This document shows positions 1,542 through 15,928 of a stretch of DNA of 20,000 bases, piece by piece. Location of the stretch: the sequence record DRR723986_646; one strand, 5' to 3'. The notes below the pieces were generated by a model, which was given only the letters and a program-made list of their open reading frames with translations, did not search any database and had not been told where the DNA came from. The position numbers and the translations under genes were made by a program. The first letter of the stretch is position 1; the number at the start of each line of letters is the position of its first letter.

Positions 1542-3026
1542 TCAGTTGCCCGCGGCGGGCGTAAACCGCCCGCCACTGCACTCAACCGCCCGGCCGCAGT
1601 ACTCCTGCTGCTGCATGTCCGCCATCAGCGGCGGATCGTCATTCCAGGCGACTGTTCGCCGACCATCGGCCAGATCCAGCATGGCCACTGCGCGCCGCTC
1701 GGCGCCGGACTCGTGGATGACCGTGTAGCCGGCAATTGTCGCCGGACCGGAGCAGTCCGTGACCACCTCCAGCGGCGGATTGTCCGCCGCGACTTCACCG
1801 GTCACATCAATGAACTGGAAACCCGCGGGACCGGGTTCGGTCGACCACAGCCCGATCGCCTGTTTGGTCATCAGTCCAGACACCGAACTGGTAAGACCCC
1901 GGCTACCGGGTCGCTGACGCATCAGTTCGGCAAGACGGCAGGTGGACTGCAGCACGTAGTTATTCAACGGTCCACCGGCGAAAGGCATGCCGCCGGTAAC
2001 GGTCAGTTCACGCTCAAGGTCCAGGCCGATCTCAACGGCATAACTCTCCACCGCCACCGGGAAACAGCTGTACAGGTCAATGAAATCCAGCTGTTCAACC
2101 GAGCAGTCGGCAGCCGCCAGCGCTCGCCGCGCGGCAGCGGCGGCACCCGGTGTACGCGACAGGTCTGCGCGCTGGGCAACGCTGAGCATCTGGTTGCACT
2201 CAGCGCTGGCGACCGGGAACAGCCAGCGCTCGCGGGGAATCCCCAGGGCTCTGGCCCGCTCGGCACTGCACAGCAGCAGCGCTCCCGCCTGATCCACATT
2301 CCAGGAGGTGTTGTGCAGCTTGGTATAGGGGAAAGCGAGCATCGGGTTACGCGAACCAGGATTACGGATCGTCTCCGGCTCCATTGGCGAGCGCTTCCAG
2401 GCGTGGGGATTGTTGGCAGCGATGGCGCTGAACCGTGCATACAAGGCTGCTATATGATCCCGGTGTGCTTCTATGGATAAGCCTCGGCTGGCACGAAACG
2501 CGCTCTCGATAATCGCATAGTAGTTAACCGGCATGTAGCCCAGCCCCGAGTTGACCTCGGCGTCCAGATAAAGGTCTGCCTCAGCTGTGCGGGTGACATC
2601 AGGACTAGCCGCGTCTTCCCGCTCAGTCGCCTGTTCGCCGGCGATCTGCGCCTGCAGCCAGCGATAGCGCGCCTCGCCTCCCACCACCAGGCCCGCCTCG
2701 ATGGTGCCATCCGCTATCAACTGGCAGGTTTCGCCAATCGGAGTCTGCTGCAGCACGCCGATTTCAGCCAGTACTGAGGTCGCCTGCGGCGCAGCGATGG
2801 CATCTGCGATAAGGCGCGCCGGGTCGCCGTAGTGCCACAGCCCCCTGGGAACGCTGATCCGCCCAAGCGCGGTGCGCAGCTCGTCAGCACCCGCATCGGC
2901 CAGCGCCGCCAGGGCGGCGTCCACCATCAATTCCACCGGCTCTTTCGCCGCCCGCCAGTCGCCCAGTCGCTGCTCGATGATGCCGATGCCAACCAGCACC
3001 GGTGTCTTGTCGGGTATAGCGTCCAT
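1542..3026 (-). CDS. Thiolase-like protein (non-canonical acetyl-CoA acetyltransferase family)
   Basis: TPVLVGIG N-terminus, PYTKLH...VDQAGALLL, IDLYSCFP and LTVTGGMPFAGGPLNNY motifs. ATG at 3026 lies 4 nt downstream of the enoyl-CoA hydratase stop. Confidence 0.8.
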   Translation of the reverse strand: MDAIPDKTPVLVGIGIIEQRLGDWRAAKEPVELMVDAALAALADAGADELRTALGRISVPRGLWHYGDPARLIADAIAAPQATSVLAEIGVLQQTPIGETCQLIADGTIEAGLVVGGEARYRWLQAQIAGEQATEREDAASPDVTRTAEADLYLDAEVNSGLGYMPVNYYAIIESAFRASRGLSIEAHRDHIAALYARFSAIAANNPHAWKRSPMEPETIRNPGSRNPMLAFPYTKLHNTSWNVDQAGALLLCSAERARALGIPRERWLFPVASAECNQMLSVAQRADLSRTPGAAAAARRALAAADCSVEQLDFIDLYSCFPVAVESYAVEIGLDLERELTVTGGMPFAGGPLNNYVLQSTCRLAELMRQRPGSRGLTSSVSGLMTKQAIGLWSTEPGPAGFQFIDVTGEVAADNPPLEVVTDCSGPATIAGYTVIHESGAERRAVAMLDLADGRRTVAWNDDPPLMADMQQQEYCGRAVECSGGRFTPAAGN

Positions 3027-3030
3027 CAGC

Positions 3031-3837
3031 TCATTCCCCCTTGAATTCCGGCATGCGCTTCTCCTTGAAGGCTCGCGGCCCCTCACGCGCATCACGACTC
3101 ATCATTACGGCACCCGCCTGTTCCATCTCGAACCGAAACGCGTCCTGCCAGGGCAAGGTGTGGGTCTCCAGCGCAGTGCGCTTGATCGCCTGCAGGGCCA
3201 GGGGTGCCTGCCGACAGATATTGTCAGCCAGCTCCGCGGCACGAGCCAGCAGACGCTCCCGGGGCACTACTTCAGAAATCAGGCCCATCGCCTGGGCCTC
3301 GGCGGCAGCTACCGGTTCACCGGCAAGCAGGATCTTCATCGCATGAGCCCAGGGCAGCTGGCGGGCCAGGCGCACCATCGAACCCGCGCCGGGCACCACG
3401 CCGGACAGCGGCTCCGGCAGGGAAAAACTGGCGTTTTCCGCGGCGACACGGATATCCGTGGCCTGCAGCAGCTCGGTGCCGCCACCCAGGGCCCGGCCGT
3501 TGATTGCCGCGATCACTGGCTTGTACATGGGCCGGTCCTTGAGCATCACCCTGTCGATGATGAGCGGGTCATCGAGCAGCCGTTGTTCGACCGCATTCTG
3601 CGGCTGGCGCGCACCGGTCCACAGGGGGATCACCTCGCCCAGGTCTCCGCCGCAGCAGAAGTCCTCGTCACCCGCTGCCGTGATTACCGCCACCCTGATT
3701 GCGTCATCGTCGCGCACCCGCTCCCAGGCATCCGCAAGCGCTACAAACATCTCGCCATTCATAAGATTGCGGCGTTCTGGCCGGTTGAGGGTGATCCAGG
3801 CCTGCTGGCCACGGATTTCGAACAACACTGCGCCCAT
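3031..3837 (-). CDS. Enoyl-CoA hydratase/isomerase (crotonase) family protein
   Basis: ITLNRPERRN, FCCGGDL, KPVIAAINGRALGGGTE, DIRVA, LPE and DAREGPRAFKEKR motifs; both catalytic Glu positions present. AGGAGG RBS before ATG 3837. Confidence 0.92.
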   Translation of the reverse strand: MGAVLFEIRGQQAWITLNRPERRNLMNGEMFVALADAWERVRDDDAIRVAVITAAGDEDFCCGGDLGEVIPLWTGARQPQNAVEQRLLDDPLIIDRVMLKDRPMYKPVIAAINGRALGGGTELLQATDIRVAAENASFSLPEPLSGVVPGAGSMVRLARQLPWAHAMKILLAGEPVAAAEAQAMGLISEVVPRERLLARAAELADNICRQAPLALQAIKRTALETHTLPWQDAFRFEMEQAGAVMMSRDAREGPRAFKEKRMPEFKGE

Positions 3838-3939
3838 AGGGGTCCTCCTGTCGCGCTGGCAGGTATTCGTATCTTGTGCAGGAGCAGAAGATACGCTGCG
3901 CCCTGCCATTTTGCACGGCGGCATGTTTAGATAGCGTGC

Positions 3940-4680
3940 ATGTCGACCCTGTCGCTGCAATCGGTCAGCAAAACCTTTGGTGCCACTACTGCCCTGGATA
4001 CGGTCAGCCTGGAGATACCGGCAGCCGGTATCACCGCGCTTATCGGCCGCAGCGGCTGCGGTAAATCCACCTTACTACGCCTGTGTAACGGCCTGCTTAC
4101 CCCGGACCGGGGAACAGTAACCATCCTCGGCGAACCCCTGGCCTACGATGACCTGCCCCGCCAGCGCCGTCGCATCGGCTATGCCGTGCAAGGGACGGGT
4201 CTATTCCCGCACCTGACGGTGCGCGGCAACATCGCGTTGCTCGCTGAACTGACCGGCTGGTCGGCCGAGTTGATCGACCAGCGTCTGGCCGAGCTGCTAT
4301 CGCTCACCCACCTTGAAGAGGAGTTGCTGGACCGTCACCCGCACCAGCTCAGCGGTGGACAGCAGCAGCGGGTCGGACTGTGCCGGGCAATGATGCTGCG
4401 CCCGCAGGTACTGCTGCTGGACGAACCCTTTGCCGCCATCGACCCCATTACCCGCGCGGACATCCACCAGGCACTGCTCGACCTGTACCAGGCCGAGCCG
4501 ACGACCGTACTGCTGGTGACCCATGACATCCGCGAGGCGCTGCGCCTGGCTGACCGCATCGTGCTGCTGGAGTCCGGCCAGATCGTGCTGGACCAGGAAA
4601 CCCCAACCTTGCTCGCGGCGCACCCGGGTCTCGACCCGGACCAGCTGTTGCAAGAACTGATGTCGACGGCGGCGGCATGA
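3940..4680 (+). CDS. ABC transporter ATP-binding subunit, betaine/quaternary amine (OpuBA/ProV-like) type, without CBS domains
   Basis: Walker [28 protein letters not shown], signature LSGGQQQR, Walker B LLLDEPF, H-loop VTHD; 246 aa. ATGA overlap with the next gene. Confidence 0.92.
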
Positions 4681-6257: not shown

Positions 6258-7034
6258 ATCAGTGCGTTCTCAGCATTCTGCTCAGCGGCCCGGCCACAGG
6301 CAGCCGGCAACCCCTGTCGCGTGCACCGGTTCGCGTATGAGCCGGATTTCGCACCGCAACCATCGGACATGGCGCAGTGCGCCACCTGGCCTGCGGGCGA
6401 TTTCCGCGCCGGCGTTCGCTGCTGGACGGCCAGTGGCCACGCCATCCAGTGCTGCGGTCACGGCCTGCTGTCCGCGGCAGCCAGCTGGCAGCCGGAATGG
6501 CCAGGGCATGGCGAATTGCTGATGAACGGCTCGACCATCCTCTGCGAGTACGATGCCCGGGACATCTGGCTCGGCTTTTCACGCGTCAGCTGCCACAGTT
6601 GTTCGGTTCCATCCTGGGCAACAGCCCTGTTCGGCACCGCGCCAGTTACAGCGGCACAGGCCAGCGGCGACGATGGCTACCTGATCCTGGCCTGGCCGGA
6701 CAACACGGTGCTTGACACCCTGGCAGCGCCCGGTGCCGCACTGGCTAAGCACACCCATCGCGCCCTTATCGCCACCTGTGCCACCACTCCCGGCGAAAGC
6801 CGCTTCGGCGAGTCGATACGCTATCGCTACTTTGCCCCGCAGCACGGTGTAGACGAGGACTGCGCAACCGGCTCGGCCCTGCGCATCCTGGCCGACTACT
6901 GGGAATCGCGCGGAATAGGTGCCCAGCTTAGCGCCTGGCAGCAGTCACCGCGTGGAGGCTGGCTGCATAGCCGGATAAGCGGCGACCAGGTATGGATCGG
7001 CGGCGCTGTTGCCGAACAGGTGCCGGTCGCATGA
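6258..7034 (+). CDS. Divergent PhzF/DapF-fold isomerase-like protein (start uncertain; frame open from 6156)
   Basis: In-frame SAF...GNPCRV (6270-6323, cf. DAF...GNPAAV), RCWT....IQCCGHG, RYFAPQHGVDEDCATGSA, QQSPRGG and VWIGG. Stop overlaps the egtB start (ATGA). First canonical in-frame start (GTG 6321) lies at the end of the N-terminal motif; 6258 is only an approximate start. Confidence 0.75.
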   Translation: MSAFSAFCSAARPQAAGNPCRVHRFAYEPDFAPQPSDMAQCATWPAGDFRAGVRCWTASGHAIQCCGHGLLSAAASWQPEWPGHGELLMNGSTILCEYDARDIWLGFSRVSCHSCSVPSWATALFGTAPVTAAQASGDDGYLILAWPDNTVLDTLAAPGAALAKHTHRALIATCATTPGESRFGESIRYRYFAPQHGVDEDCATGSALRILADYWESRGIGAQLSAWQQSPRGGWLHSRISGDQVWIGGAVAEQVPVA

Positions 7035-8287
7035 GCAGCCAGAGCCTGCTCGAATCGTTTCAGGAGACCCGCCAGCAGTCGGTCAGCTTCTGTAACGCAC
7101 TGGCCATTGAAGACTATGGCCTGCAGGCAGCAGACTTCGTAAGCCCGCCCAAGTGGCATCTCGCGCATACCAGCTGGTTCTTCGAAACCTTTATCCTCAA
7201 ACCGTTCTGCAGTGACTACCGGGCCAGCGAACCGTTGTTTGAGGTGCTGTTCAATTCCTACTACAACGGCATCGGCGAACAGTTCCCGCGCCCCAAACGT
7301 GGCCTATTATCGCGGCCGACCGTCGCGGAAGTACTCGCCTACCGGGCGGAAATCGATGCCGCTATGATTCAGCTCCTCGACAGCCCCGGTAGCAACACGG
7401 AGGAAATCGCTGCTCGCACCCGGCTGGGTATCGAACACGAGCGCCAGCACCAGGAGCTGTTCTTCACTGACCTGAAGTACTCCCTGTTCGTGAATCCACT
7501 GTACCCGGCGTATTCGACCGCAGTCCCCGAGGATAGCCCTCAACCTGCGCCGGTGAGCTGGCTGGAGTTTGATGGCGGGCTGGTTGAAACGGGATTTGCG
7601 GGCGACGGTTTCTGCTTCGACAACGAGTTACCGCGGCACAAGACCTACCTCGAACCCTTTGCCCTTGCAGACCGGTTGGTGAGCAACGGCGAATACCAGA
7701 CATTTATCGATGACGGCGGCTACCATCGTCCCGAACTCTGGCTCGCCGACGGCTGGACCCAGGTAGTGGCTGAAAAATGGCAGGCTCCACTGTACTGGAT
7801 CGACCGGGACGGGGAACAACTGGCGTTTACCCTGGCCGGACTGCAGCCACGGCGCGCAGCGCAGCCTGTGTGCCATATCAGCGGCTATGAGGCCGACGCC
7901 TTCGCGCGCTGGGCCAATGCGCGACTTCCCACCGAGCATGAATGGGAACATGCCGCCAACACGGCAGCCGCACCTGTCGGCGGTGTCGACGAGCTGGTCT
8001 TCCATCCCGGCCCTGCCACGGGTGAGGGCTTGCGCCAGCTGTACGGTGCCTGCTGGCAATGGACCCAGAGCGCCTACAGCCCCTACCCCGGCTACCAGGC
8101 GTCGGCCGGCGCCATTGGTGAATACAACGGTAAGTTCATGAGTAACCAGTGGGTGCTGCGCGGCGGCTCCTGCGTGTCAAAGGCAGCCCACCTGCGCCCC
8201 AGTTACCGGAACTTCTTCTACCCACCGGATCGCTGGCAGTTCTCAGGTATTCGCCTGGCGCAGTCTATCCGGGACACTCATTCCTAA
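7031..8287 (+). CDS. egtB: Ergothioneine biosynthesis sulfoxide synthase EgtB
   Basis: SPPKWHLAHTSWFFE, FNSYY, RPKRGLLSRP, iron motif HERQHQE, FGE-sulfatase-like C-terminal domain (FCFDNE, RLPTEHEWE, GEYNGKFM, VLRGGS, YRNFF...RWQFSGIR). ATG 7031 is coupled to the upstream stop. Confidence 0.95.
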   Translation: MSSQSLLESFQETRQQSVSFCNALAIEDYGLQAADFVSPPKWHLAHTSWFFETFILKPFCSDYRASEPLFEVLFNSYYNGIGEQFPRPKRGLLSRPTVAEVLAYRAEIDAAMIQLLDSPGSNTEEIAARTRLGIEHERQHQELFFTDLKYSLFVNPLYPAYSTAVPEDSPQPAPVSWLEFDGGLVETGFAGDGFCFDNELPRHKTYLEPFALADRLVSNGEYQTFIDDGGYHRPELWLADGWTQVVAEKWQAPLYWIDRDGEQLAFTLAGLQPRRAAQPVCHISGYEADAFARWANARLPTEHEWEHAANTAAAPVGGVDELVFHPGPATGEGLRQLYGACWQWTQSAYSPYPGYQASAGAIGEYNGKFMSNQWVLRGGSCVSKAAHLRPSYRNFFYPPDRWQFSGIRLAQSIRDTHS

Positions 8288-8299
8288 GTGGACAAACGG

Positions 8300-9274
8300 A
8301 TGCACAAAGCGAGAGCAATTACCAATAACGTCACGTTTCGCGACCTTCACCCCGCGCACGGGGACAGCCGCAGCGAGATCATTGCCGGCTTGCAACAAGA
8401 CGCCAAGACAATTGACCCAAAGTGGTTCTACGATGAGCGCGGCTCACAGCTGTTCGACCAGATCACCCGAGTCCCGGAGTACTATCCGACGCGCACGGAG
8501 AAACAGATACTGCAGGACAACGCGGAGTCAATCAGCAGCTACTGCGAGACCGGTTGCGTGTTCATCGAACCCGGCAGCGGCAGCTGCGAGAAAGTCCAGC
8601 TGCTGCTCGACGAGCTGCAGCCGAGCAGCTATGTGCCCGTGGATATTTCCGCCGACTTCCTGCTCAACGCCGCCCATGCGCTGGGGGAAGACTACCCATG
8701 GCTGGACATCCAGGCGGTCTGTGCCGACTTCAACCGGGACTGGTCATTCGCCGAGACCCTGCCCGAAGGCAAACGCGTCGTGTTCTATCCTGGCTCTACC
8801 ATCGGCAACCTGGAGCCGGCAGCGGCGGTCGAATTCCTGCGCAAGGTGCGCGACATCCTGGCGGAATCAGGCGGCGCGGTCATCGGCGTCGACCTGCACA
8901 AGTCCAGTGACCAGCTTAACAGCGCCTACAATGACAGCGCCGGGCTGACGGCCGCTTTCAATCTCAATGTGCTGACCAGGCTAAATTCCCTGCTGGACGC
9001 GGACTTTGACGTAGCAGCTTTCCGCCACCACGCCTTCTACAATACCGACCTGCGGCGCATAGAAATGCACCTGGTCAGTGAGCGCAGCCAGACGGTTAGC
9101 TGCGCCGGCGAGAAGATTCATTTCGAGCAGGGCGAGAGTATTCACACCGAGAGTTCCTACAAATACACGGTGGAGGATTTCACCGAGCTGGCCGCGGAGG
9201 CAAACCTGGCACTGCAACACAGCTGGATCGATGCCGAACAGCTGTTCAGCGTACACTACCTCGCCGCCGCCTGA
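8300..9274 (+). CDS. egtD: L-histidine N(alpha)-methyltransferase EgtD (alternative GTG start at 8288)
   Basis: PKWFYDERGSQLFDQIT..PEYYPTRTE, EPGSGS, YVPVDIS, PGSTIGN, AYNDSAGLTAAFNLN, RIEMHL and IHTESSYKY; adjacent to egtB. Confidence 0.95.
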   Translation: MHKARAITNNVTFRDLHPAHGDSRSEIIAGLQQDAKTIDPKWFYDERGSQLFDQITRVPEYYPTRTEKQILQDNAESISSYCETGCVFIEPGSGSCEKVQLLLDELQPSSYVPVDISADFLLNAAHALGEDYPWLDIQAVCADFNRDWSFAETLPEGKRVVFYPGSTIGNLEPAAAVEFLRKVRDILAESGGAVIGVDLHKSSDQLNSAYNDSAGLTAAFNLNVLTRLNSLLDADFDVAAFRHHAFYNTDLRRIEMHLVSERSQTVSCAGEKIHFEQGESIHTESSYKYTVEDFTELAAEANLALQHSWIDAEQLFSVHYLAAA

Positions 9275-9355: not shown

Positions 9356-10630
9356 ATGAAACCTGAAACTATCGCACTGCATACCGGCTACGACGGTGAT
9401 CCAACCAGCCACGCGGCCACGACGCCGATTTACCAGACCACGTCCTTTACCTTCGATGATACGCAACACGGTGCGGACCTGTTCGACCTCAAGGTGCCGG
9501 GCAATATCTATAGCCGGATCATGAATCCCACCAATGCGGTGCTCGAGGCGCGCCTGGCCGCACTGGAAGGTGGCGTCGGTGCACTCTGTGTCGCCTCGGG
9601 TATGGCAGCGATCCGCTACTCAATCGAAGCGATAGCAGCGACGGGTGACAATATCGTCAGCACCTCGCAGTTGTATGGCGGTACCTATAACCTGTTCGCC
9701 CACACCTTCCCGCGCCAGGGCATCGAAACCCGTTTCACCAAGGCCGACGACTTCGAGCGAGCCCGCTCACTGATTGACGACAAGACCCGGGCGCTGTTCT
9801 GCGAATCGATCGGCAATCCGGCGGGCAATGTCGTTGACATCGAACGCTGGGCCGAGATCGCTCATGAGGCCGGCGTGCCGCTAATCGTGGACAACACCGT
9901 GGCCACGCCCTTCCTGTGCCGTGCTTTCGACTACGGCGCCGACATCGTCGTGCACTCCCTGACCAAGTACATCGGTGGGCACGGCACCACGATTGGCGGC
10001 GCTATCATCGATTCAGGAAAATTCGACTGGGCCGCTCACAGCGAGCGCTTCCCGATCATGAACACACCTGACCCTTCTTACCACGGAGTGGTCTATACCG
10101 AAGCCATGGGTGAGGCGGCATTCATCGGCCGCTGTCGAGTGGTGCCACTGCGCAACACCGGCGCTGCCATGTCCCCGCACAGCGCCTTCCTGCTGATGCA
10201 GGGTCTGGAAACCCTCGCGCTGCGCATGGAGCGCCACTGCGACAACGCGGAACAAGTGGCCGCATACCTCCAGGCACACCCGGCGGTCAACTGGGTAAAC
10301 TACGCCACGCTGCCGGACAGCCCGTACCAGGATACCTGCAAGCGGATTTGCGGCGGCCGCGCCTCGGGGATTCTCAGCTTCGGTATCGCCGGCGGCCGGG
10401 ACGCCGGCGCGAAGTTTATCGATGCGCTGCAACTTATCCTGCGCCTGGTAAACATCGGCGACGCCAAGTCACTGGCCTGTCACCCTGCCAGCACCACCCA
10501 TAGGCAGCTGAATCCGGAGGAGCTAGCCTCAGCTGGCGTCTCCGAGGACATGGTGCGTATCTCGGTGGGTATCGAGCATGTAGATGACATCATCGCCGAC
10601 ATTGAGCAGGCCCTAGCCGCCAGTCAGTAA
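9356..10630 (+). CDS. metY: O-acetylhomoserine aminocarboxypropyltransferase / (thiol)-lyase, PLP-dependent
   Basis: PIYQTTSF, GNIYSRIMNPT, ASGMAA, LYGGTYNLF, DNTVATP, PLP lysine HSLTKYIGGHG, PDPSYHG, NIGDAKSL..HPASTTH, RISVGIEH. Confidence 0.92.
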   Translation: MKPETIALHTGYDGDPTSHAATTPIYQTTSFTFDDTQHGADLFDLKVPGNIYSRIMNPTNAVLEARLAALEGGVGALCVASGMAAIRYSIEAIAATGDNIVSTSQLYGGTYNLFAHTFPRQGIETRFTKADDFERARSLIDDKTRALFCESIGNPAGNVVDIERWAEIAHEAGVPLIVDNTVATPFLCRAFDYGADIVVHSLTKYIGGHGTTIGGAIIDSGKFDWAAHSERFPIMNTPDPSYHGVVYTEAMGEAAFIGRCRVVPLRNTGAAMSPHSAFLLMQGLETLALRMERHCDNAEQVAAYLQAHPAVNWVNYATLPDSPYQDTCKRICGGRASGILSFGIAGGRDAGAKFIDALQLILRLVNIGDAKSLACHPASTTHRQLNPEELASAGVSEDMVRISVGIEHVDDIIADIEQALAASQ

Positions 10631-10641
10631 GGCAAACTTCC

Positions 10642-10663
10642 GGCGGCCGGTGACCCGGCCGCC
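10642..10663. terminator. GC-rich hairpin between convergent metY and the AOS-like/LOX gene
   Basis: Perfect 9-bp stem GGCGGCCGG-TGAC-CCGGCCGCC in the 48-nt gap between the two stops; no clear U-tract. Confidence 0.5.
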
Positions 10664-10678
10664 AGACCTGGCCCCCAA

Positions 10679-13351
10679 TCAGATGGCGATGCTTTCGCTG
10701 ATCTGCCGGGGGTCCATATACGGATAGGGAATCTCCAAGCCCCTGTTGCGCTCCTCGATCGAGTCGGAAATCTCCGCCAGCGCACTGCGGAAGCGGCTGA
10801 CCATCTGCCACATCTGCGGATTGCCGTGAAAATACGGCTTTTCGAAATCCCCCATCTGGTAACGCGTTGGCTGGCTCAGCAGGTAGACCATCTCCATCTG
10901 GGATTCGCATTTGGCATGATTGGGTAGCGCCGCCACAAAATCAGCCTCGGTCATCGGCTTCTTCTTGTCCCGGGGCCAGGGCTTGTACATTGATCCCGGT
11001 ACGTTGGGCGGATAACCGAACATCGCGTATTGCCCGTTATTCACGCTGGCGTGCTCCGCTGTGCAGGTGAAGATAACCCGCGTAATCACTGTCTTCAGCG
11101 ACTCGCGCAGGGTGACGGCGCCATCCTCAGGCAGCCCGCGCACCTTGCCCACAGCGGGATCGGCCAGTTCGCGGAACCAGGCCTGCAGCTCACTATCGCT
11201 AACTATCGCCTCATCCGAGGGATACCAGAAATCCACAACCTCGGAGACATAGTTGGCGACTGCCTGCCACACCAGCAGCCCATCATCGCGGTAGAAGTAC
11301 AGCGGCAGTTTCTTCTTGTTGTCGACACCGCGCCGCGCCAGGTCAGCCGGCAGGTCACACAGCGAGAAGTCCCACTTCCGATATTCTCGCTTCAACAGTT
11401 CCACGCTGCCGCTGGCGCCCAGTGACAAGGTCTTGTCGATCGGCCCGCCGGGGGCGAGCATGACATTGCGAGCAGAGCTGTTGATAGCCATCGTGGCATG
11501 AAAGTGCGGCACCAAAAGCTGGTACATCGGATGGCGCACATGCAGCTGGCGATGGGTCGCAACTGCGAAGGTCTCCATCACAAAATGGGTGCGTAGCAGG
11601 TGGGATGCCACCTCGTGAAAGGTCGCGTCCGCGGCCTGGACATAGGCTTTTACCGTGGTCCACAACCAGTAGGGATCTTTCGGCGTAAAAATCGGCGCCG
11701 AGGGACCCGGCTCCTGCTCAAGCTGCACCGCCAGCGGCAAGAGCTGTCCAAGGCCGTTGCAGTAGAACAAGGTTATCGGAACGGCGAGGTGGCCATTCTT
11801 GACGGCGATGCCGCCAATCGCCTGGTGGTCCAGTAGATACAGACTGCCACGTCGGGCTGCCTTGGCGAGAGTATCGCCCTCGTCGAGCAGGCCACTGACG
11901 ATGTCATTGGTGACCGGCAGCTTGTCCGGAATCTTGTCACAGCGTTCAATCAGCACCGGGTTGACCCCGTTGAGCCGCTGCCGACCAAACTCCAGATCGC
12001 TGCCAAAGCGCTTGCTAACCGCGGGCTTTTGCCACAGTGGATAGTGCCGATTGAAGTTTCTCAGCCCGTTGCGACGCTTGCCGAGTTCCTCCACGGTCGA
12101 GATGAAGGCGTTGAACACCCCATAGGCCATGGTCTTGATCATGCCGCGGCTCTTGGCGCGGGTGAACTCCTCGTTCCTGGGCAGATGCCGCGCGTGCGGC
12201 GGCGTGCCGTCGCCGGACTCCCACAGATAGATATCCTGCTTGGAGATCAGCTCGTCCGCACGCATTTCAGCTGACGAATCCTGCTCATCCTGGGGCAGGC
12301 AGATGCGCGGTACGCGGCTATGTCCCGCACAGCGGTCATCCTCCAGCGGCGGCAGTTGACCCCAGAGTTTATAGCCCTTCATGCGCGCCTTCTTCGCCCA
12401 ACCGTCCTTCGCCCTCAGGTAATTGATGGACGCGGGGTCGAAGATCGACGTGGCCTCGGGGATACTCATGTTCGGCGGGTGGTTACAGACGTCATACCAG
12501 GTCAGGTTGCCCTCCTCCGTCGGCATGACCTGGTCCACTTCGACTTCCGCCAGGTCGTGCCAGGGATGACTCTCATCTTTCCAGGCGACGCCGCAGTTCA
12601 GTATCTCCCGATCCTCTCCGGGATCCACGGCGTGAAACTGTGCTTGCAGGTGATATTTCACCGGCCCGTCCTCAAGACGGCGACGCAGCTCATCCTTGAG
12701 GAAATTTCGGGAGCGATCCTCGCCGGGCTTGGGTGCCTGCAGCCAGAATTCCTCCAGCTCTTGCTCATTGGGACGGCCACGATCGGGACCGCGGTCCCAG
12801 GGCGCCAGCTTGAATTTTATATACCAGTCCTTGCCATTTGAATCGCGGTAGCCCAGCGCGGTCTTACTGTGATAGTTCAACAGGGCAAAGGTGTCCGGAT
12901 AACAGATCGACTGGGTAATGCCCTCGGCCAGGCCAGGATTGGCATCGAGGTAAGGCTTGATGTGCTGCTCCCGACCCCGGATCGTGGCGATCATGAACTT
13001 CAGGAAATCCCAGGCGTGGGCAAACGGCCCGGCAGTTCCCGTATTCATCATGAGGTCGAACTTCGACTCGTGGTCGGTATCGGAGAACTTGAGGGAGGCA
13101 CTGCGCACTACCAGGCGCGCATCGTCAGCGAAGGACACCGATGCATGCCGAATCCGGCAGGGAAACTCCGAACCCGGGGTAAAGAATTCACAGGGCGGGA
13201 TGTCGAGCTCATCGATGATGCGAATCTTACCCTTGCAGACGATCCCGTTGTCGTGGGACATCCGCCGCCGGGTGACGAGCGAGTTAAACGCCACCAGCGC
13301 GATAATGCCGCCGGTCAGCAACCACAGTCCTAGCTTGCCTATCAGTCTCAT
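10679..13351 (-). CDS. Catalase-related (allene oxide synthase-like) domain fused to a non-heme iron lipoxygenase
   Basis: aa ~27-330 catalase-like: RRMSH33DNG, RIRHAS, DD.....RSASLKFSD, DLMMN103TG, YHS, Y.KFKL.P, YHLQAQ, W.DESHPWHDLA. aa ~350-890 LOX: FGRQRLNGVNP, W...KAYVQAAD...HE...H584LLRTH589, RQL...HP, YRDDG, D.ELQAW, H767ASVN771, C-terminal SIAI890. Confidence 0.92.
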   Translation of the reverse strand: MRLIGKLGLWLLTGGIIALVAFNSLVTRRRMSHDNGIVCKGKIRIIDELDIPPCEFFTPGSEFPCRIRHASVSFADDARLVVRSASLKFSDTDHESKFDLMMNTGTAGPFAHAWDFLKFMIATIRGREQHIKPYLDANPGLAEGITQSICYPDTFALLNYHSKTALGYRDSNGKDWYIKFKLAPWDRGPDRGRPNEQELEEFWLQAPKPGEDRSRNFLKDELRRRLEDGPVKYHLQAQFHAVDPGEDREILNCGVAWKDESHPWHDLAEVEVDQVMPTEEGNLTWYDVCNHPPNMSIPEATSIFDPASINYLRAKDGWAKKARMKGYKLWGQLPPLEDDRCAGHSRVPRICLPQDEQDSSAEMRADELISKQDIYLWESGDGTPPHARHLPRNEEFTRAKSRGMIKTMAYGVFNAFISTVEELGKRRNGLRNFNRHYPLWQKPAVSKRFGSDLEFGRQRLNGVNPVLIERCDKIPDKLPVTNDIVSGLLDEGDTLAKAARRGSLYLLDHQAIGGIAVKNGHLAVPITLFYCNGLGQLLPLAVQLEQEPGPSAPIFTPKDPYWLWTTVKAYVQAADATFHEVASHLLRTHFVMETFAVATHRQLHVRHPMYQLLVPHFHATMAINSSARNVMLAPGGPIDKTLSLGASGSVELLKREYRKWDFSLCDLPADLARRGVDNKKKLPLYFYRDDGLLVWQAVANYVSEVVDFWYPSDEAIVSDSELQAWFRELADPAVGKVRGLPEDGAVTLRESLKTVITRVIFTCTAEHASVNNGQYAMFGYPPNVPGSMYKPWPRDKKKPMTEADFVAALPNHAKCESQMEMVYLLSQPTRYQMGDFEKPYFHGNPQMWQMVSRFRSALAEISDSIEERNRGLEIPYPYMDPRQISESIAI

Positions 13352-13502
13352 TGCTCACAATCCCTGTAAAGTTACGGTCTGGTCAAAAAACCAGCGAGTT
13401 CGTCCTTCCGCCAGCTAAATGTAGTATTTGCTATGCAAGAAAGTTAGTCTTGATGCGGCTTTTGTACAAATTACCAAGGGCTATGGGCTCGAGGAATTGG
13501 CA

Positions 13503-15287
13503 ATGATGGGTTTCTGGCGTGAGATGCGTCGCCGGCATGTGTTCAGAATCGCGGGGGTCTACGTTGCGGTCGCCTGGGTTTTCATCGAGGTGCTGGCCAA
13601 CGTCCTGCCCATGTTCGAGGCGCCTGACTGGATAGCCAAGACGGTTACCCTGCTGCTGGTGTTGTGCTTCCCCGTTGCGCTGATCATCGCCTGGGCGTTC
13701 GAAGTAACGCCTGACGGCATCAAACGGGCCAGCGACTTGGAAGACCGCGGTGATCCCCTGCCCCCCGCCCTGCCCGATTACCTCATCCTCACCGCCTTGC
13801 TGGTCGTCATCGGCATGAGTGTGATGGACGGTGGAGGCGGTTCGTCCCAGAGCGAGCCCCGGAAGAAACAGGACGGTGAAGTGACCTCACTCGCCGTCAT
13901 GCCGTTTCTCGACTTCAGTGAGAACGCCGAGAATCAGTACCTGGGCAATGGCATCGCCGAAGCAGTGATGAATGCACTCGCCAAATCCGGCAACGTCCGC
14001 GTGGCGTCACGCACCTCTGCGTTTGCCAGCCAGAATCGCGACATGGACTCCAAGGCCATCGGCGAGAAGCTTGGCGTCAGCGACATACTGGAAGGCAGCA
14101 TACGGCGCCAGGCAGACCGACTGCGTCTCTCGGTCCAGCTGACCGATGTCGCGTCCGGTTACCAGATTTGGGCCGAGACCTACGACCGGGAGTTCAGCGA
14201 TATTTTCCAGATAGAGGAAGATCTGACCCGGGCTCTGGTAACTGCCCTCAGCGTCCCCCTGGCGCTGGATGAAGGCCCTATCGTCGATTCCGGCACCGAG
14301 GACGTTGAAGCCTATAACCTCAGTCTCGAGGGCCGCTACCTGTTCCGTTCACCAACCCAGGAAAACTTCCTGCGCGCGACCCAGCTTTTCCAGCGGGCTA
14401 TCGCGCTGGATCCGGACTTCTGGACCGCCCATGGTTATCTTGCCTTCTGTCTTGGCTATGCCAGCATCTACAGCAGTTACGCGCAGCAGGTTGTGAGCAC
14501 CTCGGTGTCTACCGAGCTCGCCCTGCGCAATGAACCGGGCAATGTCCCGGCAATGCTGATCCGCGGCTTTATGCTGCGCGACCTCGATGGGGCGTATCCG
14601 GATTATGACCGTGCCCTGCGCAGCGAGCGCGAGCGGGACCTCGCGCTGTATGTCTATCACAACGACTACCTTGCACCGCAGATGCGCAGCGAGGAGGCAC
14701 GCGAGCTGCTGATGACCGGGCTCGAAGAAGATCCCGACAGCATCCTGATCCTGCAACCGATGGCCATGCTGGAAAGCCGGGCCGGCAACTACACCCGCGC
14801 ACTCGACTATATCGCACGTGCAGGCAGGGCTGACGGAAGTGATTTTCTCGTGTCATCGGTACTGGGCGACGTCTACTACCGAATGAAAGATGCTGCCCGG
14901 CTGAAAAAGGTAGCCCAGGATTCCATCGACAGGATCGGCCACCAGAACGGGTTTATGACCCAGTACCTGATCCAGGCGCTCATCATGAGCGAGGAACTGG
15001 AGGCAGCCAGTGAGTTGCTCGAGCAGACCATCATCTGGCGCGATGAGGGCAGGCCATTTTCTGCAACCACCATCGGTCTCGGACTCGCAGGACTTGGGCG
15101 CAACCGGGAAGCAGCCCGCTGGCTGGTCCAGGCCGAGCGCGAGCGGGATTTCTGGCTGCTCTGGCACCTGAAGTCCGCGCTGGTTGATTTCCCGGCACTA
15201 GCCGCGGAGCCAATGATCGAGCAATTACTCGCCCGCCGGGGTCTCGATGACACCAGCATCGCGCAACGCAAGGCCCGGGGACACTAA
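13503..15287 (+). CDS. Membrane-anchored TolB-like (FlgO-type) domain + TPR-repeat protein
   Basis: N-terminus FWREMRRRHVFRIAGVY...W and FPVALIIAWAFEVTPDG with about 3 hydrophobic helices; SLAVMPF.DFS, Y...GIAE...N.L, VASRTSAF, ILEGSIRR...RLR..VQL, IWAETYDR; helical TPR-like C-terminus (AIALDPDF). GAGGA RBS before ATG 13503. Confidence 0.82.
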   Translation: MMGFWREMRRRHVFRIAGVYVAVAWVFIEVLANVLPMFEAPDWIAKTVTLLLVLCFPVALIIAWAFEVTPDGIKRASDLEDRGDPLPPALPDYLILTALLVVIGMSVMDGGGGSSQSEPRKKQDGEVTSLAVMPFLDFSENAENQYLGNGIAEAVMNALAKSGNVRVASRTSAFASQNRDMDSKAIGEKLGVSDILEGSIRRQADRLRLSVQLTDVASGYQIWAETYDREFSDIFQIEEDLTRALVTALSVPLALDEGPIVDSGTEDVEAYNLSLEGRYLFRSPTQENFLRATQLFQRAIALDPDFWTAHGYLAFCLGYASIYSSYAQQVVSTSVSTELALRNEPGNVPAMLIRGFMLRDLDGAYPDYDRALRSERERDLALYVYHNDYLAPQMRSEEARELLMTGLEEDPDSILILQPMAMLESRAGNYTRALDYIARAGRADGSDFLVSSVLGDVYYRMKDAARLKKVAQDSIDRIGHQNGFMTQYLIQALIMSEELEAASELLEQTIIWRDEGRPFSATTIGLGLAGLGRNREAARWLVQAERERDFWLLWHLKSALVDFPALAAEPMIEQLLARRGLDDTSIAQRKARGH

Positions 15288-15295
15288 TCATATCC

Positions 15296-15928
15296 ATGAA
15301 TACTGACAACTCTGGTACGCCAGGGCAGCAATCCCTGTTTGTCTCGACCCGCGCAGAACATATCGGACCATCGGTACCGCGACGCGGCAACGCTGTTACC
15401 GCGTGGCTGGCTGGCGCCCTGCTGCGTCTGGCGGGTTGGCGGGTGATAGGCGTGGTCACCGATGCCCCGAGCTTCATCATTATTGGCGCACCCCACACCT
15501 CCAACTGGGATTTCATCCTGGTCATGTTGACCGCCGCCCAGTGCAAGGTTCGGGTTTCGTGGATGGGTAAACACACGCTGTTCACCGGCCTCAAGGGCAA
15601 GCTGCTGCGCTGGCTCGGCGGGGTACCGATCAACCGTGGCGCTGCCCAGGGTATTGTCGGCGATACGGTAGCGGCCTTCCGGGAAGCCGAGAAGCTGGTG
15701 CTGTGCATCACCCCCGAGGGAACGCGCAGCGGCGACGCCAGCTGGAAGTCGGGCTTTCACCGGATCGCGCGGGAGGCGCAGCTACCGATCCTGCTGGCCG
15801 CCTTCGACTACGGCAACAAGGTAGTCTGGCTGGGTCCGACCGTCGAGGCGGGAGAGGATTACGAGGCAGACCTCGCACTCATCCAGGCAAACTATGCCGG
15901 GATAGAGGGCAAGGCCGGGCAGAGCTGA
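15296..15928 (+). CDS. PlsC-type 1-acyl-sn-glycerol-3-phosphate / lysophospholipid acyltransferase family protein
   Basis: Catalytic HX4D (PHTSNWD), GGVPINR, PEGTRS and WKSGF..IA; 8 nt downstream of the TPR gene. Confidence 0.88.
   Translation: MNTDNSGTPGQQSLFVSTRAEHIGPSVPRRGNAVTAWLAGALLRLAGWRVIGVVTDAPSFIIIGAPHTSNWDFILVMLTAAQCKVRVSWMGKHTLFTGLKGKLLRWLGGVPINRGAAQGIVGDTVAAFREAEKLVLCITPEGTRSGDASWKSGFHRIAREAQLPILLAAFDYGNKVVWLGPTVEAGEDYEADLALIQANYAGIEGKAGQS

Follow-up and report, generated by a model that had tools for sequence, protein, structure and literature searches.

The window analyzed here is a stretch of 20,000 nucleotides from sequence record DRR723986_646, and the gene under study lies in it at positions 10679-13351, where the minus strand holds a single unbroken open reading frame (ORF) of 890 codons plus stop coding for a catalase-related domain fused to a lipoxygenase (LOX). 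The ORF list and the translation bear out the uninterrupted 890-aa ORF that a sequence-only reading had claimed for this interval, leaving its strand unstated; the plus-strand reading was rejected, its translation being full of stops. The product (P0001) ends in ...SESIAI and has full-length homologues of 63-77% identity, Halioglobus/Parahalioglobus pacificus among them. The existence of uncharacterized homologues had been considered possible and is borne out, public entries being named 'lipoxygenase family protein'. No NCBIfam model matches P0001. The coding sequence (CDS) and the features of its product, of which the fused architecture is read directly from the translation, are arranged as follows:

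10679..13351, minus strand: whole CDS, catalase-related domain fused to lipoxygenase, 890 aa (ORF list, translation, full-length homologues)
13271..13348, minus strand: N-terminal hydrophobic helix, aa 2-27 (RLIGKLGLWLLTGGIIALVAFNSLVT), putative membrane anchor (AlphaFold2, Kyte-Doolittle)
12350..13270, minus strand: catalase-related domain, like the coral allene oxide synthase (AOS), aa 28-334 (phmmer, subfamily profile, Foldseek)
13253..13258, minus strand: distal Ser32-His33, equivalent to coral Thr66-His67 (alignments)
13043..13045, minus strand: distal Asn103, equivalent to coral Asn137 (alignment)
12383..12415, minus strand: proximal-helix segment R313-AKDGWAKKA-R323, without an equivalent of Tyr353 (profile and pairwise alignments, AlphaFold2)
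12281..12349, minus strand: inter-domain linker, aa 335-357, 23 residues, low confidence (full-length AlphaFold2 model)
10682..12280, minus strand: lipoxygenase catalytic domain, aa 358-890 (PF00305, phmmer to PDB sequences)

The relationship with the coral enzyme is evident at several levels. Among PDB sequences, the best phmmer match of P0001 is the coral AOS-LOX 3dy5 (E 6.5e-142, in three collinear stretches), and the match to the coral AOS-LOX architecture is far beyond chance. The isolated coral AOS domain 1u5u is found by phmmer at E 3e-47, with query aa 25-321 paired with coral 59-358, and by a profile of the subfamily (37 sequences) at E 1.4e-97. An AlphaFold2 model of aa 1-362, built with 54 homologues and reaching a predicted local distance difference test (pLDDT) of 93.4, superposes on 1u5u in Foldseek with E 2e-34, a template-modeling (TM) score of 0.85, and a root-mean-square deviation (rmsd) of 1.6 Å over 327 columns. 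In the ranking of structures, 1u5u and 3dy5 (TM 0.85) come first, followed by true catalases at TM 0.6-0.66. The catalase-fold domain that had been read at the N-terminus (aa 27-330) is confirmed by the 1u5u match. A true monofunctional catalase has been ruled out, as P0001 gives no match to Pfam Catalase (PF00199) at E ≤ 1, the distal pair is Ser-His and not Val-His, and the proximal Tyr is absent.

The heme pocket of the coral AOS is formed, according to passages of Teder et al. (2017; PMC5617202), by the propionate-binding residues R64, R102, and R360, the distal residues T66, H67, and N137, and the proximal ligand Y353. Coral R64, T66, H67, R102, N137, R349, and R360 align with query R30, S32, H33, R68, N103, R313, and R323, and all three heme-propionate arginines (R30, R68, R323) are kept in the pairwise, profile, and reference alignments. 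Ser32, a conservative change from coral Thr66, precedes His33, and Asn103 stands in MNTG, both at the positions given beforehand. In the subfamily of 61 cluster representatives described below, S32, H33, R68, N103, R313, and R323 are 100% conserved and R30 93%.

Judging from the alignments, the canonical proximal heme ligand (coral R349xxxY353) is lost by a one-residue deletion. R313 and R323 are the equivalents of coral R349 and R360 with no Tyr in between, and the segment from Arg to Arg counts 11 residues inclusive in the query versus 12 in the canonical forms. When the subfamily profile (37 sequences) is aligned to 1u5u, coral Y353 comes out as an insert state, and therefore the deletion falls exactly on the heme ligand; in the pairwise alignment of the query and coral AOS, the gap adjoins Y353, and in the AlphaFold2 model the proximal helix is broken at 315-316. 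All seven named coral and cyanobacterial references (Capnella AOS-LOXa, Acaryochloris sp. CCMEE 5410, Nostoc sp. CENA67, Desmonostoc, Oscillatoria, a Spirulinaceae metagenome-assembled genome (MAG), and the JGI 'linolenate 9R-lipoxygenase') keep Thr-His and RxxVY, whereas the query, Halioglobus pacificus, and Thiocapsa sp. KS1 show Met-Ser-His and no Tyr in the same alignment. Several residues were considered as substitute ligands. Y327 (R323+4) was rejected, given that N, M, L, Q, G, A, or T occupies its position in many members with an otherwise complete pocket, and Y311, D316, G317, and W318 were rejected as not conserved. The residues conserved specifically in the subfamily are M31, R66, K88, D91, and Y177, which the alignments do not locate relative to the heme; opposite R66, K88, D91, and Y177 coral has identical residues, and M31 faces coral Ala65. 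With the proximal Tyr deleted, the heme site would be non-canonical. The known coral and cyanobacterial enzymes are then no guide to its product, since O-O cleavage in them is tuned by the very axial ligand that the query lacks; candidates are an allene oxide, an epoxide, an epoxy-alcohol, and an aldehyde.

The Tyr-less form is not peculiar to the query. An exhaustive phmmer search with aa 1-362 yielded 472 cluster representatives at E ≤ 0.001, the best 150 of the 472 being listed, and a local phmmer search with the same residues matched 186 of 188 proteins, from which 162 domain-covering ones (query included) were aligned and 24 partial ones dropped. In this alignment, 61 of the 162 proteins are of the query's type (Ser-His and Arg, no Tyr, 11-residue segment), occurring either as stand-alone proteins of about 350 aa or as fusions of 886-967 aa. 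Another 61 have the canonical Arg and Tyr in a 12-residue segment, 48 of them with Thr-His; 26 have Glu replacing the Arg and no Tyr, and the remaining 14 show other combinations. A FastTree tree of the N-domain contains a split with support 0.999 that holds all 61 members of the query's type plus four others, and the Ser-His, Tyr-less form is on this phylogeny a separate clade. Where stand-alone members carry a name, it is 'hypothetical protein' or, once, 'arachidonate 5-lipoxygenase', and the solved structures matched by the subfamily profile are only coral AOS, MAP_2744c, and catalases.

Another trait of the subfamily concerns its N-terminus. The putative anchor helix of the query, with a best 19-aa Kyte-Doolittle mean of 1.95, ends five residues ahead of the distal His33, and a 19-residue window with a Kyte-Doolittle value of at least 1.6 ahead of the distal His occurs in 49 of the 61 Tyr-less members versus 11 of 60 canonical ones. 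On the other side of the domain, the PLAT domain of the coral enzyme is absent: P0001 has no Pfam match to PLAT and its AlphaFold2 model no beta-sandwich, and the LOX alignment sets in past PLAT, from residue 502 of the coral enzyme and from chain residue 149 of human 15-LOX-2. PLAT is a usual part of eukaryotic LOXs, cyanobacterial mini-LOXs lack it, and membership of the iron LOX family does not depend on it. In the full-length AlphaFold2 model, the linker has pLDDT <50 at 341-347, and the first LOX helix spans 358-374. The N-terminal helix may hold the entrance of the heme pocket at the membrane, thus taking the job of the coral PLAT domain. The deleted axial Tyr with no conserved substitute, the frequent hydrophobic helix, and the lack of PLAT would also suit an N-domain that has become a heme-free, non-catalytic relic, a membrane-targeting or scaffold module in place of PLAT, leaving the LOX as sole catalyst and a hydroperoxide or hydroxide as end product. 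We regard such a relic as unlikely, since the pocket residues are kept throughout the subfamily, also in domains encoded by separate genes in related loci from several phyla, which is unlike a mere anchor, and the AlphaFold2 model retains the coral AOS core within an rmsd of 1.6 Å.

The C-terminal half is a complete LOX, whose catalytic residues are encoded at these positions:

11600-11602, minus strand: Fe ligand H584 (alignment, coordinates checked)
11585-11587, minus strand: Fe ligand H589 (alignment, coordinates checked)
11051-11053, minus strand: Fe ligand H767 (alignment, coordinates checked)
11039-11041, minus strand: Fe ligand N771 (alignment, coordinates checked)
10682-10684, minus strand: Fe ligand I890, carboxylate of the last residue (translation, coordinates checked)
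11471-11473, minus strand: Coffa-site residue A627 (alignment)

A hidden Markov model search for Pfam Lipoxygenase (PF00305), which had been proposed as a check, gives a match over aa 448-871 at E 3e-78, scoring 264.4 bits where the curated cut-off is 23.6, and phmmer of the LOX part finds human 15-LOX-2 at E 1e-106 (aa 362-890) and coral 8R-LOX at E 3e-94. The five iron ligands named in the sequence-only reading are all in place, forming the pattern HxxxxH, HxxxN, and C-terminal carboxylate in columns shared with coral 8R-LOX and human 15-LOX-2. All 37 full-length homologues share H584, H589, and H767, and at least 90% of them share N771. At the position of stereocontrol, A627 aligns with Ala416 of 15-LOX-2 and with a Gly of coral 8R-LOX. 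Reportedly, Ala at this site goes with S and Gly with R products, and an S-hydroperoxide is accordingly a weak prediction from the Ala. On family knowledge, the reaction expected of the LOX domain is dioxygenation of a cis,cis-pentadiene fatty acid, with a hydroperoxide as the product.

The genetic coupling between the two domains is directly visible in other genomes. A locus scan with one genome per species gave 73 loci; the scan patterns included RMSH, which biases the N-domain-centered loci, and the LOX-centered loci came through the LOX pattern. In 26 of the fetched loci (L001-L024, L036, and L050), LOX and the Tyr-less domain of the RMSH type form one protein; by their record titles, these loci belong to Halieaceae, Chromatiaceae (Thiocapsa, Thiohalocapsa), an Ectothiorhodospiraceae MAG, Rhodospirillales, Burkholderiales, Rhodobacterales, and a Planctomycetaceae MAG. 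When the locus is centered on a stand-alone LOX, a separate N-domain gene is found in the fetched flank in 22 of 26 cases, the other four having little or no flank there; this gene lies convergent 50-150 bp downstream of the LOX or about 5 kb off. None of these separate genes has a Tyr between the two Arg (22/22), and RMSH is present in all 12 whose N-terminus lies inside the locus. This linkage bears on the possibility that the N-domain is a peroxidase or peroxide-handling partner, which would consume lipid hydroperoxides or H2O2 and so control LOX activation or protect the membrane, no dedicated signaling oxylipin being made. A catalase fold with a distal His/Asn pair, an altered proximal side that could shift reactivity, and the location at the membrane expected from the predicted helix all fit such a role. 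We nevertheless consider it improbable: the genetic linkage is tight and specifically to LOX, there is no Pfam Catalase match, and Ser or Thr, instead of the Val of true catalases, before the distal His is said to be a trait of the fatty-acid-hydroperoxide enzymes. A second Tyr-less lineage of the catalase-related domain has also been observed in about 26 proteins (e.g., P0100), with the motif DSExRV, in which Glu replaces the Arg before the ligand Tyr. It often makes up the C-terminal part of proteins about 640 aa long, and it lies directly upstream of LOX in the Myxococcota loci L052, L061, L066, and L070.

Separate phylogenies of the two domains, the check suggested along with the sequence-only reading, place both of them in bacterial clades apart from the coral and cyanobacterial fusions. 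The LOX tree comprises 54 sequences and 513 columns; 11 sequences with a LOX match to the query of <300 residues and L033 (a stop in the translated hit) were left out. In this tree, the fused proteobacterial LOXs group together (19 + 2, support 0.881), and the split-cassette LOXs (17/17, support 1.0) are their sister. Both are apart from coral plus P0039 (support 0.996) and from the cyanobacterial LOXs, which are on the far side of the midpoint root. The separate clades of the N-domain and LOX trees therefore indicate that the fusion arose independently of the coral and cyanobacterial ones. It may have been born within a bacterial pair of LOX and Tyr-less-domain genes.

The host has been assigned with the help of the partial aceA gene of the window, whose product is 87-91% identical to its top 120 homologues. 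Those labeled with a specific organism name are Halieaceae proteins (Halioglobus, Pseudohalioglobus, Haliea, Congregibacter, Halieaceae), and the remaining named ones are labeled only Gammaproteobacteria, Pseudomonadales, or Pseudomonadota. The proposed marine gammaproteobacterial host thus stands, with the family Halieaceae added. Parahalioglobus pacificus KCTC 23430 carries the same locus (L024), with a 75% identical orthologue of the fusion and counterparts of 10 neighboring genes at 58-88% amino acid identity, including those for an ABC ATPase, an OpuAC-permease, egtB, egtD, a TPR/TolB_N protein, an acyltransferase, a class II aldolase, HxlR, and an M24 peptidase. Base composition is also that of the surroundings: the CDS has a GC content of 0.596 and a GC content at third codon positions (GC3) of 0.759, the neighbors 0.598-0.647 and 0.727-0.801, and the rest of the window a GC of 0.626; the fusion gene shows no compositional sign of recent transfer. 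A recent acquisition from a eukaryote or a cyanobacterium, or a chimeric contig, would be in keeping with the better score of the LOX against animal LOXs (E 1e-106) than against the Pseudomonas aeruginosa LOX (E 1.5e-66), and with the CDS GC lying slightly under that of the rest of the window. We hold this to be highly improbable, because the same locus and neighbors are found in P. pacificus, the TPR neighbor is kept in nine of ten Halieaceae-like loci, GC3 is inside the neighbors' range, both domain trees give bacterial clades, and aceA on the window matches Halieaceae proteins. A cyanobacterial or chimeric contig had been named in advance as something that would overturn the sequence-only reading, and it is contradicted by synteny, composition, and trees.

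As to the substrate, none of five related genomes exceeds the cut-off for a PfaD-type synthase of polyunsaturated fatty acids (PUFA), so that an exogenous PUFA becomes more likely as substrate, and the fatty acid used is probably of such a source, for instance algal. The gene's own 31-mers occur in marine plankton and seawater metagenomes from three studies with shares of 0.28-0.70, the top holders possibly being the source sample; no RNA data sets are listed among the holders.

Several known systems are close enough for comparison. The octocoral AOS-8R-LOX (Plexaura homomalla 3dy5 and 1u5u; Capnella imbricata AOS-LOXa, P0280) has the same domain order, is the best PDB match for both halves of the query, and shares with it His and Asn on the distal side as well as all three Arg that bind the heme propionates. 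However, the octocoral enzyme has Thr-His where the query has Ser-His, it has R349xxxY353 where the query retains R313 only, with the Tyr deleted, and it has PLAT between its halves where the query has the 23-residue linker. The N-terminal hydrophobic helix is a feature of the query, unlike octocoral AOS-LOX, the Coffa position is Ala in the query and Gly in octocoral 8R-LOX, and the two proteins fall in different clades of both the LOX and the N-domain trees. The cyanobacterial fusions (Anabaena/Nostoc 'linolenate 9R-lipoxygenase', Acaryochloris marina AOS-LOX), with Acaryochloris sp. CCMEE 5410 (P0224) and Nostoc sp. CENA67 (P0216) among the relatives retrieved, are like the query single polypeptides with a PLAT-less LOX, but the cyanobacterial references keep Thr-His and RxxVY. 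In four of six cyanobacterial rows (Acaryochloris, Nostoc, Desmonostoc, and the JGI protein), Ser replaces the distal Asn, which the query keeps; some of these fusions score on Pfam Catalase PF00199 and the query does not. Their LOXs are divergent and of about 450 aa, eight of 14 matching the query LOX over <300 residues. With the query's clade split off at 0.999 in the N-domain tree and the LOXs apart, the query falls outside the cyanobacterial mini-LOX fusion family. Four of the cyanobacterial proteins (P0216, P0215, P0224, and P0222) read MSTG, where coral AOS and the query have MNTG, and carry 10 extra residues immediately before this site; the Oscillatoria- and Spirulinaceae-type rows (P0210, P0213) keep the distal Asn. 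The biochemistry of cyanobacterial catalase-related/LOX fusions is treated in PMC11719350.

More distant is MAP_2744c of Mycobacterium avium subsp. paratuberculosis (3e4w/3e4y), a small protein with the catalase core but, like the N-domain, no true catalase. It matches the subfamily profile at E 2.9e-11 and the fold at TM 0.62, far more distantly than coral AOS, over an alignment that spans only profile positions 35-262, short of the proximal helix; it is not known to have a LOX partner. LoxA of Pseudomonas aeruginosa (4g32/5ir4) is likewise an iron LOX from a gammaproteobacterium. Its match to the query LOX (E 1.5e-66) is weaker than those of the animal and coral LOXs, and it is a secreted, single-domain protein without a catalase-related partner. 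The likeness to the characterized coral and cyanobacterial enzymes, on which the sequence-only reading had relied, consequently holds for the architecture and does not extend to an equation with them: the Tyr deletion, the absence of PLAT, and the separate clades of both domains make AOS chemistry only one of several possibilities. In the full-text literature searches, no proteobacterial catalase-related/LOX fusion and no Tyr-less catalase-related protein was found, and an earlier mention may exist.

From these observations, we assign a probability of about 60% to the reading that this gene of a marine member of the Halieaceae codes for an oxylipin enzyme that works in two steps, is anchored in the membrane, and has a non-canonical heme site. 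The best reading, in other words, is a one-gene oxylipin pathway, whose two catalytic steps and membrane topology we infer. The hydroperoxide released by the LOX would be rearranged or cleaved by the N-terminal catalase-fold domain, as comparative genomics and the homology with coral AOS suggest. Several points weigh against this. The absent axial Tyr could mean that no heme is bound or that another reaction takes place; in the subfamily alignment no conserved replacement ligand was found, and the R313+4 position varies among members (I, V, W, M, G, S, Y). The Kyte-Doolittle value of the helix exceeds the usual threshold only moderately, and the inter-domain arrangement is not confidently modeled by the full-length AlphaFold2 run (predicted TM score 0.63). 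Regarding the origin of the fusion, the joint node of fused and split-cassette LOXs has a support of just 0.712, and eight divergent cyanobacterial LOXs were dropped from the LOX tree. The search for PfaD covered the genomes of relatives, and the rule for Ala and Gly at the Coffa site has exceptions.

Catalase-related hydroperoxide enzymes are the textbook case of a tyrosinate-ligated heme adapted to lipid peroxides. A large and conserved bacterial clade in which the distal machinery is whole and the Tyr deleted raises the questions of how the iron is held, whether heme is used, and which chemistry follows. The strict pairing of this clade with LOX across phyla, be it fused, adjacent, or within kinase/GAF/cyclase cassettes, offers a testable entry to bacterial oxylipin biology, which is little known. 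For the abundant coastal Halieaceae, the fusion suggests a way of acting on algal PUFA, and the cultured strain P. pacificus KCTC 23430, which has an orthologue, makes genetics and biochemistry feasible. More speculatively, the Ser-His, Tyr-less anchored domain may be a new class of LOX partner, with a heme devoid of a protein axial ligand or with an unrecognized cofactor arrangement. Together with LOX, it would form the core of a widespread bacterial oxylipin signaling cassette, linked in most lineages to a Ser/Thr-kinase-STAND-GAF protein and to a class III nucleotide cyclase, and the Halieaceae fusion would be a streamlined version sensing or transforming algal PUFA at the membrane. This extended picture is possible, and we advance it tentatively.

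The cassette itself was observed at related loci. In 35 of the 73 loci (match of at least 1000 residues), the LOX/N-domain genes adjoin the gene of a large protein, about 1500 aa long, that combines Pkinase, AAA_16 (STAND), and GAF domains. Next comes a class III cyclase, either as a separate Guanylate_cyc-like protein of some 200 aa or as part of a fusion. Examples are L035:7478-12774 and L064:62-8162, and the arrangement occurs in L011-L020, L022-L023, L025-L026, L031-L033, L036-L037, L042, and L047, and further in L053, L056-L057, L059, L062, L064-L069, and L071-L072. These loci are spread over Alpha-, Beta-, and Gammaproteobacteria, Acidimicrobiia, Bacteroidota, and others. For example, in Gymnodinialimonas mytili the cyclase is fused into a 1593-aa protein; its gene overlaps a divergent LOX gene at the start of the latter, and this LOX gene also overlaps the N-domain gene. 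In Thiocapsa roseopersicina the kinase-STAND-GAF protein adjoins the fusion gene. The window has no kinase-STAND-GAF protein, and searches of the three Halieaceae genomes and of Thiohalocapsa halophila give partial kinase/AAA matches at best. PADLOC recognizes the signaling proteins of the cassette by generic kinase and cyclase models only; it gives no match to the fusion protein or to its TPR neighbor, and a known defense system was not assigned.

Two further features flank the fusion gene:

13503..15287, plus strand: membrane TPR/TolB_N protein, divergent from the fusion gene; ORF from TTG 13428, likely start ATG 13503 (Pfam TolB_N and TPR, translation)
10639..10666, minus strand: terminator-like hairpin, 12 pairs, 10 of them G-C (consensus scan, pattern match only)

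Homologues of the TPR/TolB_N protein (54-60% identity) lie divergent beside the fusion in nine of ten Halieaceae-like loci (L001-L005, L007, L021, L024, and L048), the flank of the tenth, L006, being too short to tell. From the probable ATG at 13503, the protein has an N-terminal motif FWREMRRRHVFRIAGVYVAVAW and then two hydrophobic stretches. A PlsC-type acyltransferase gene follows 8 bp past the TPR/TolB_N gene, both lying within 13428-15928 on the plus strand; it was rejected as a component of the system because it is conserved only in L024. The hairpin lies 13 nt past the stop codon of the fusion gene, between this gene and a convergent metY-like gene; the consensus scan gives two terminator-like sites for this region, and shuffled sequences have 2.7 on average.

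Elsewhere in the window, positions 1542-3960 (minus strand) hold a 517-aa ORF with only a weak thiolase-C-like match; 65 bp of it (3031-3095) are shared with the beginning of an enoyl-CoA hydratase ORF, and where the genes start is uncertain here. The metY-like gene, at 9356-10630 on the plus strand between egtD and the fusion gene, codes for a pyridoxal phosphate-dependent enzyme of Cys/Met metabolism (O-acetylhomoserine sulfhydrylase-like); it is without a counterpart at the P. pacificus locus L024, which points to a local insertion or loss. Finally, at 6992-9274 (plus strand), an egtB-like gene (DinB_2 and FGE-sulfatase) adjoins an egtD-like one (Methyltransf_33), an ergothioneine biosynthesis pair that is kept at the same place in Parahalioglobus pacificus.

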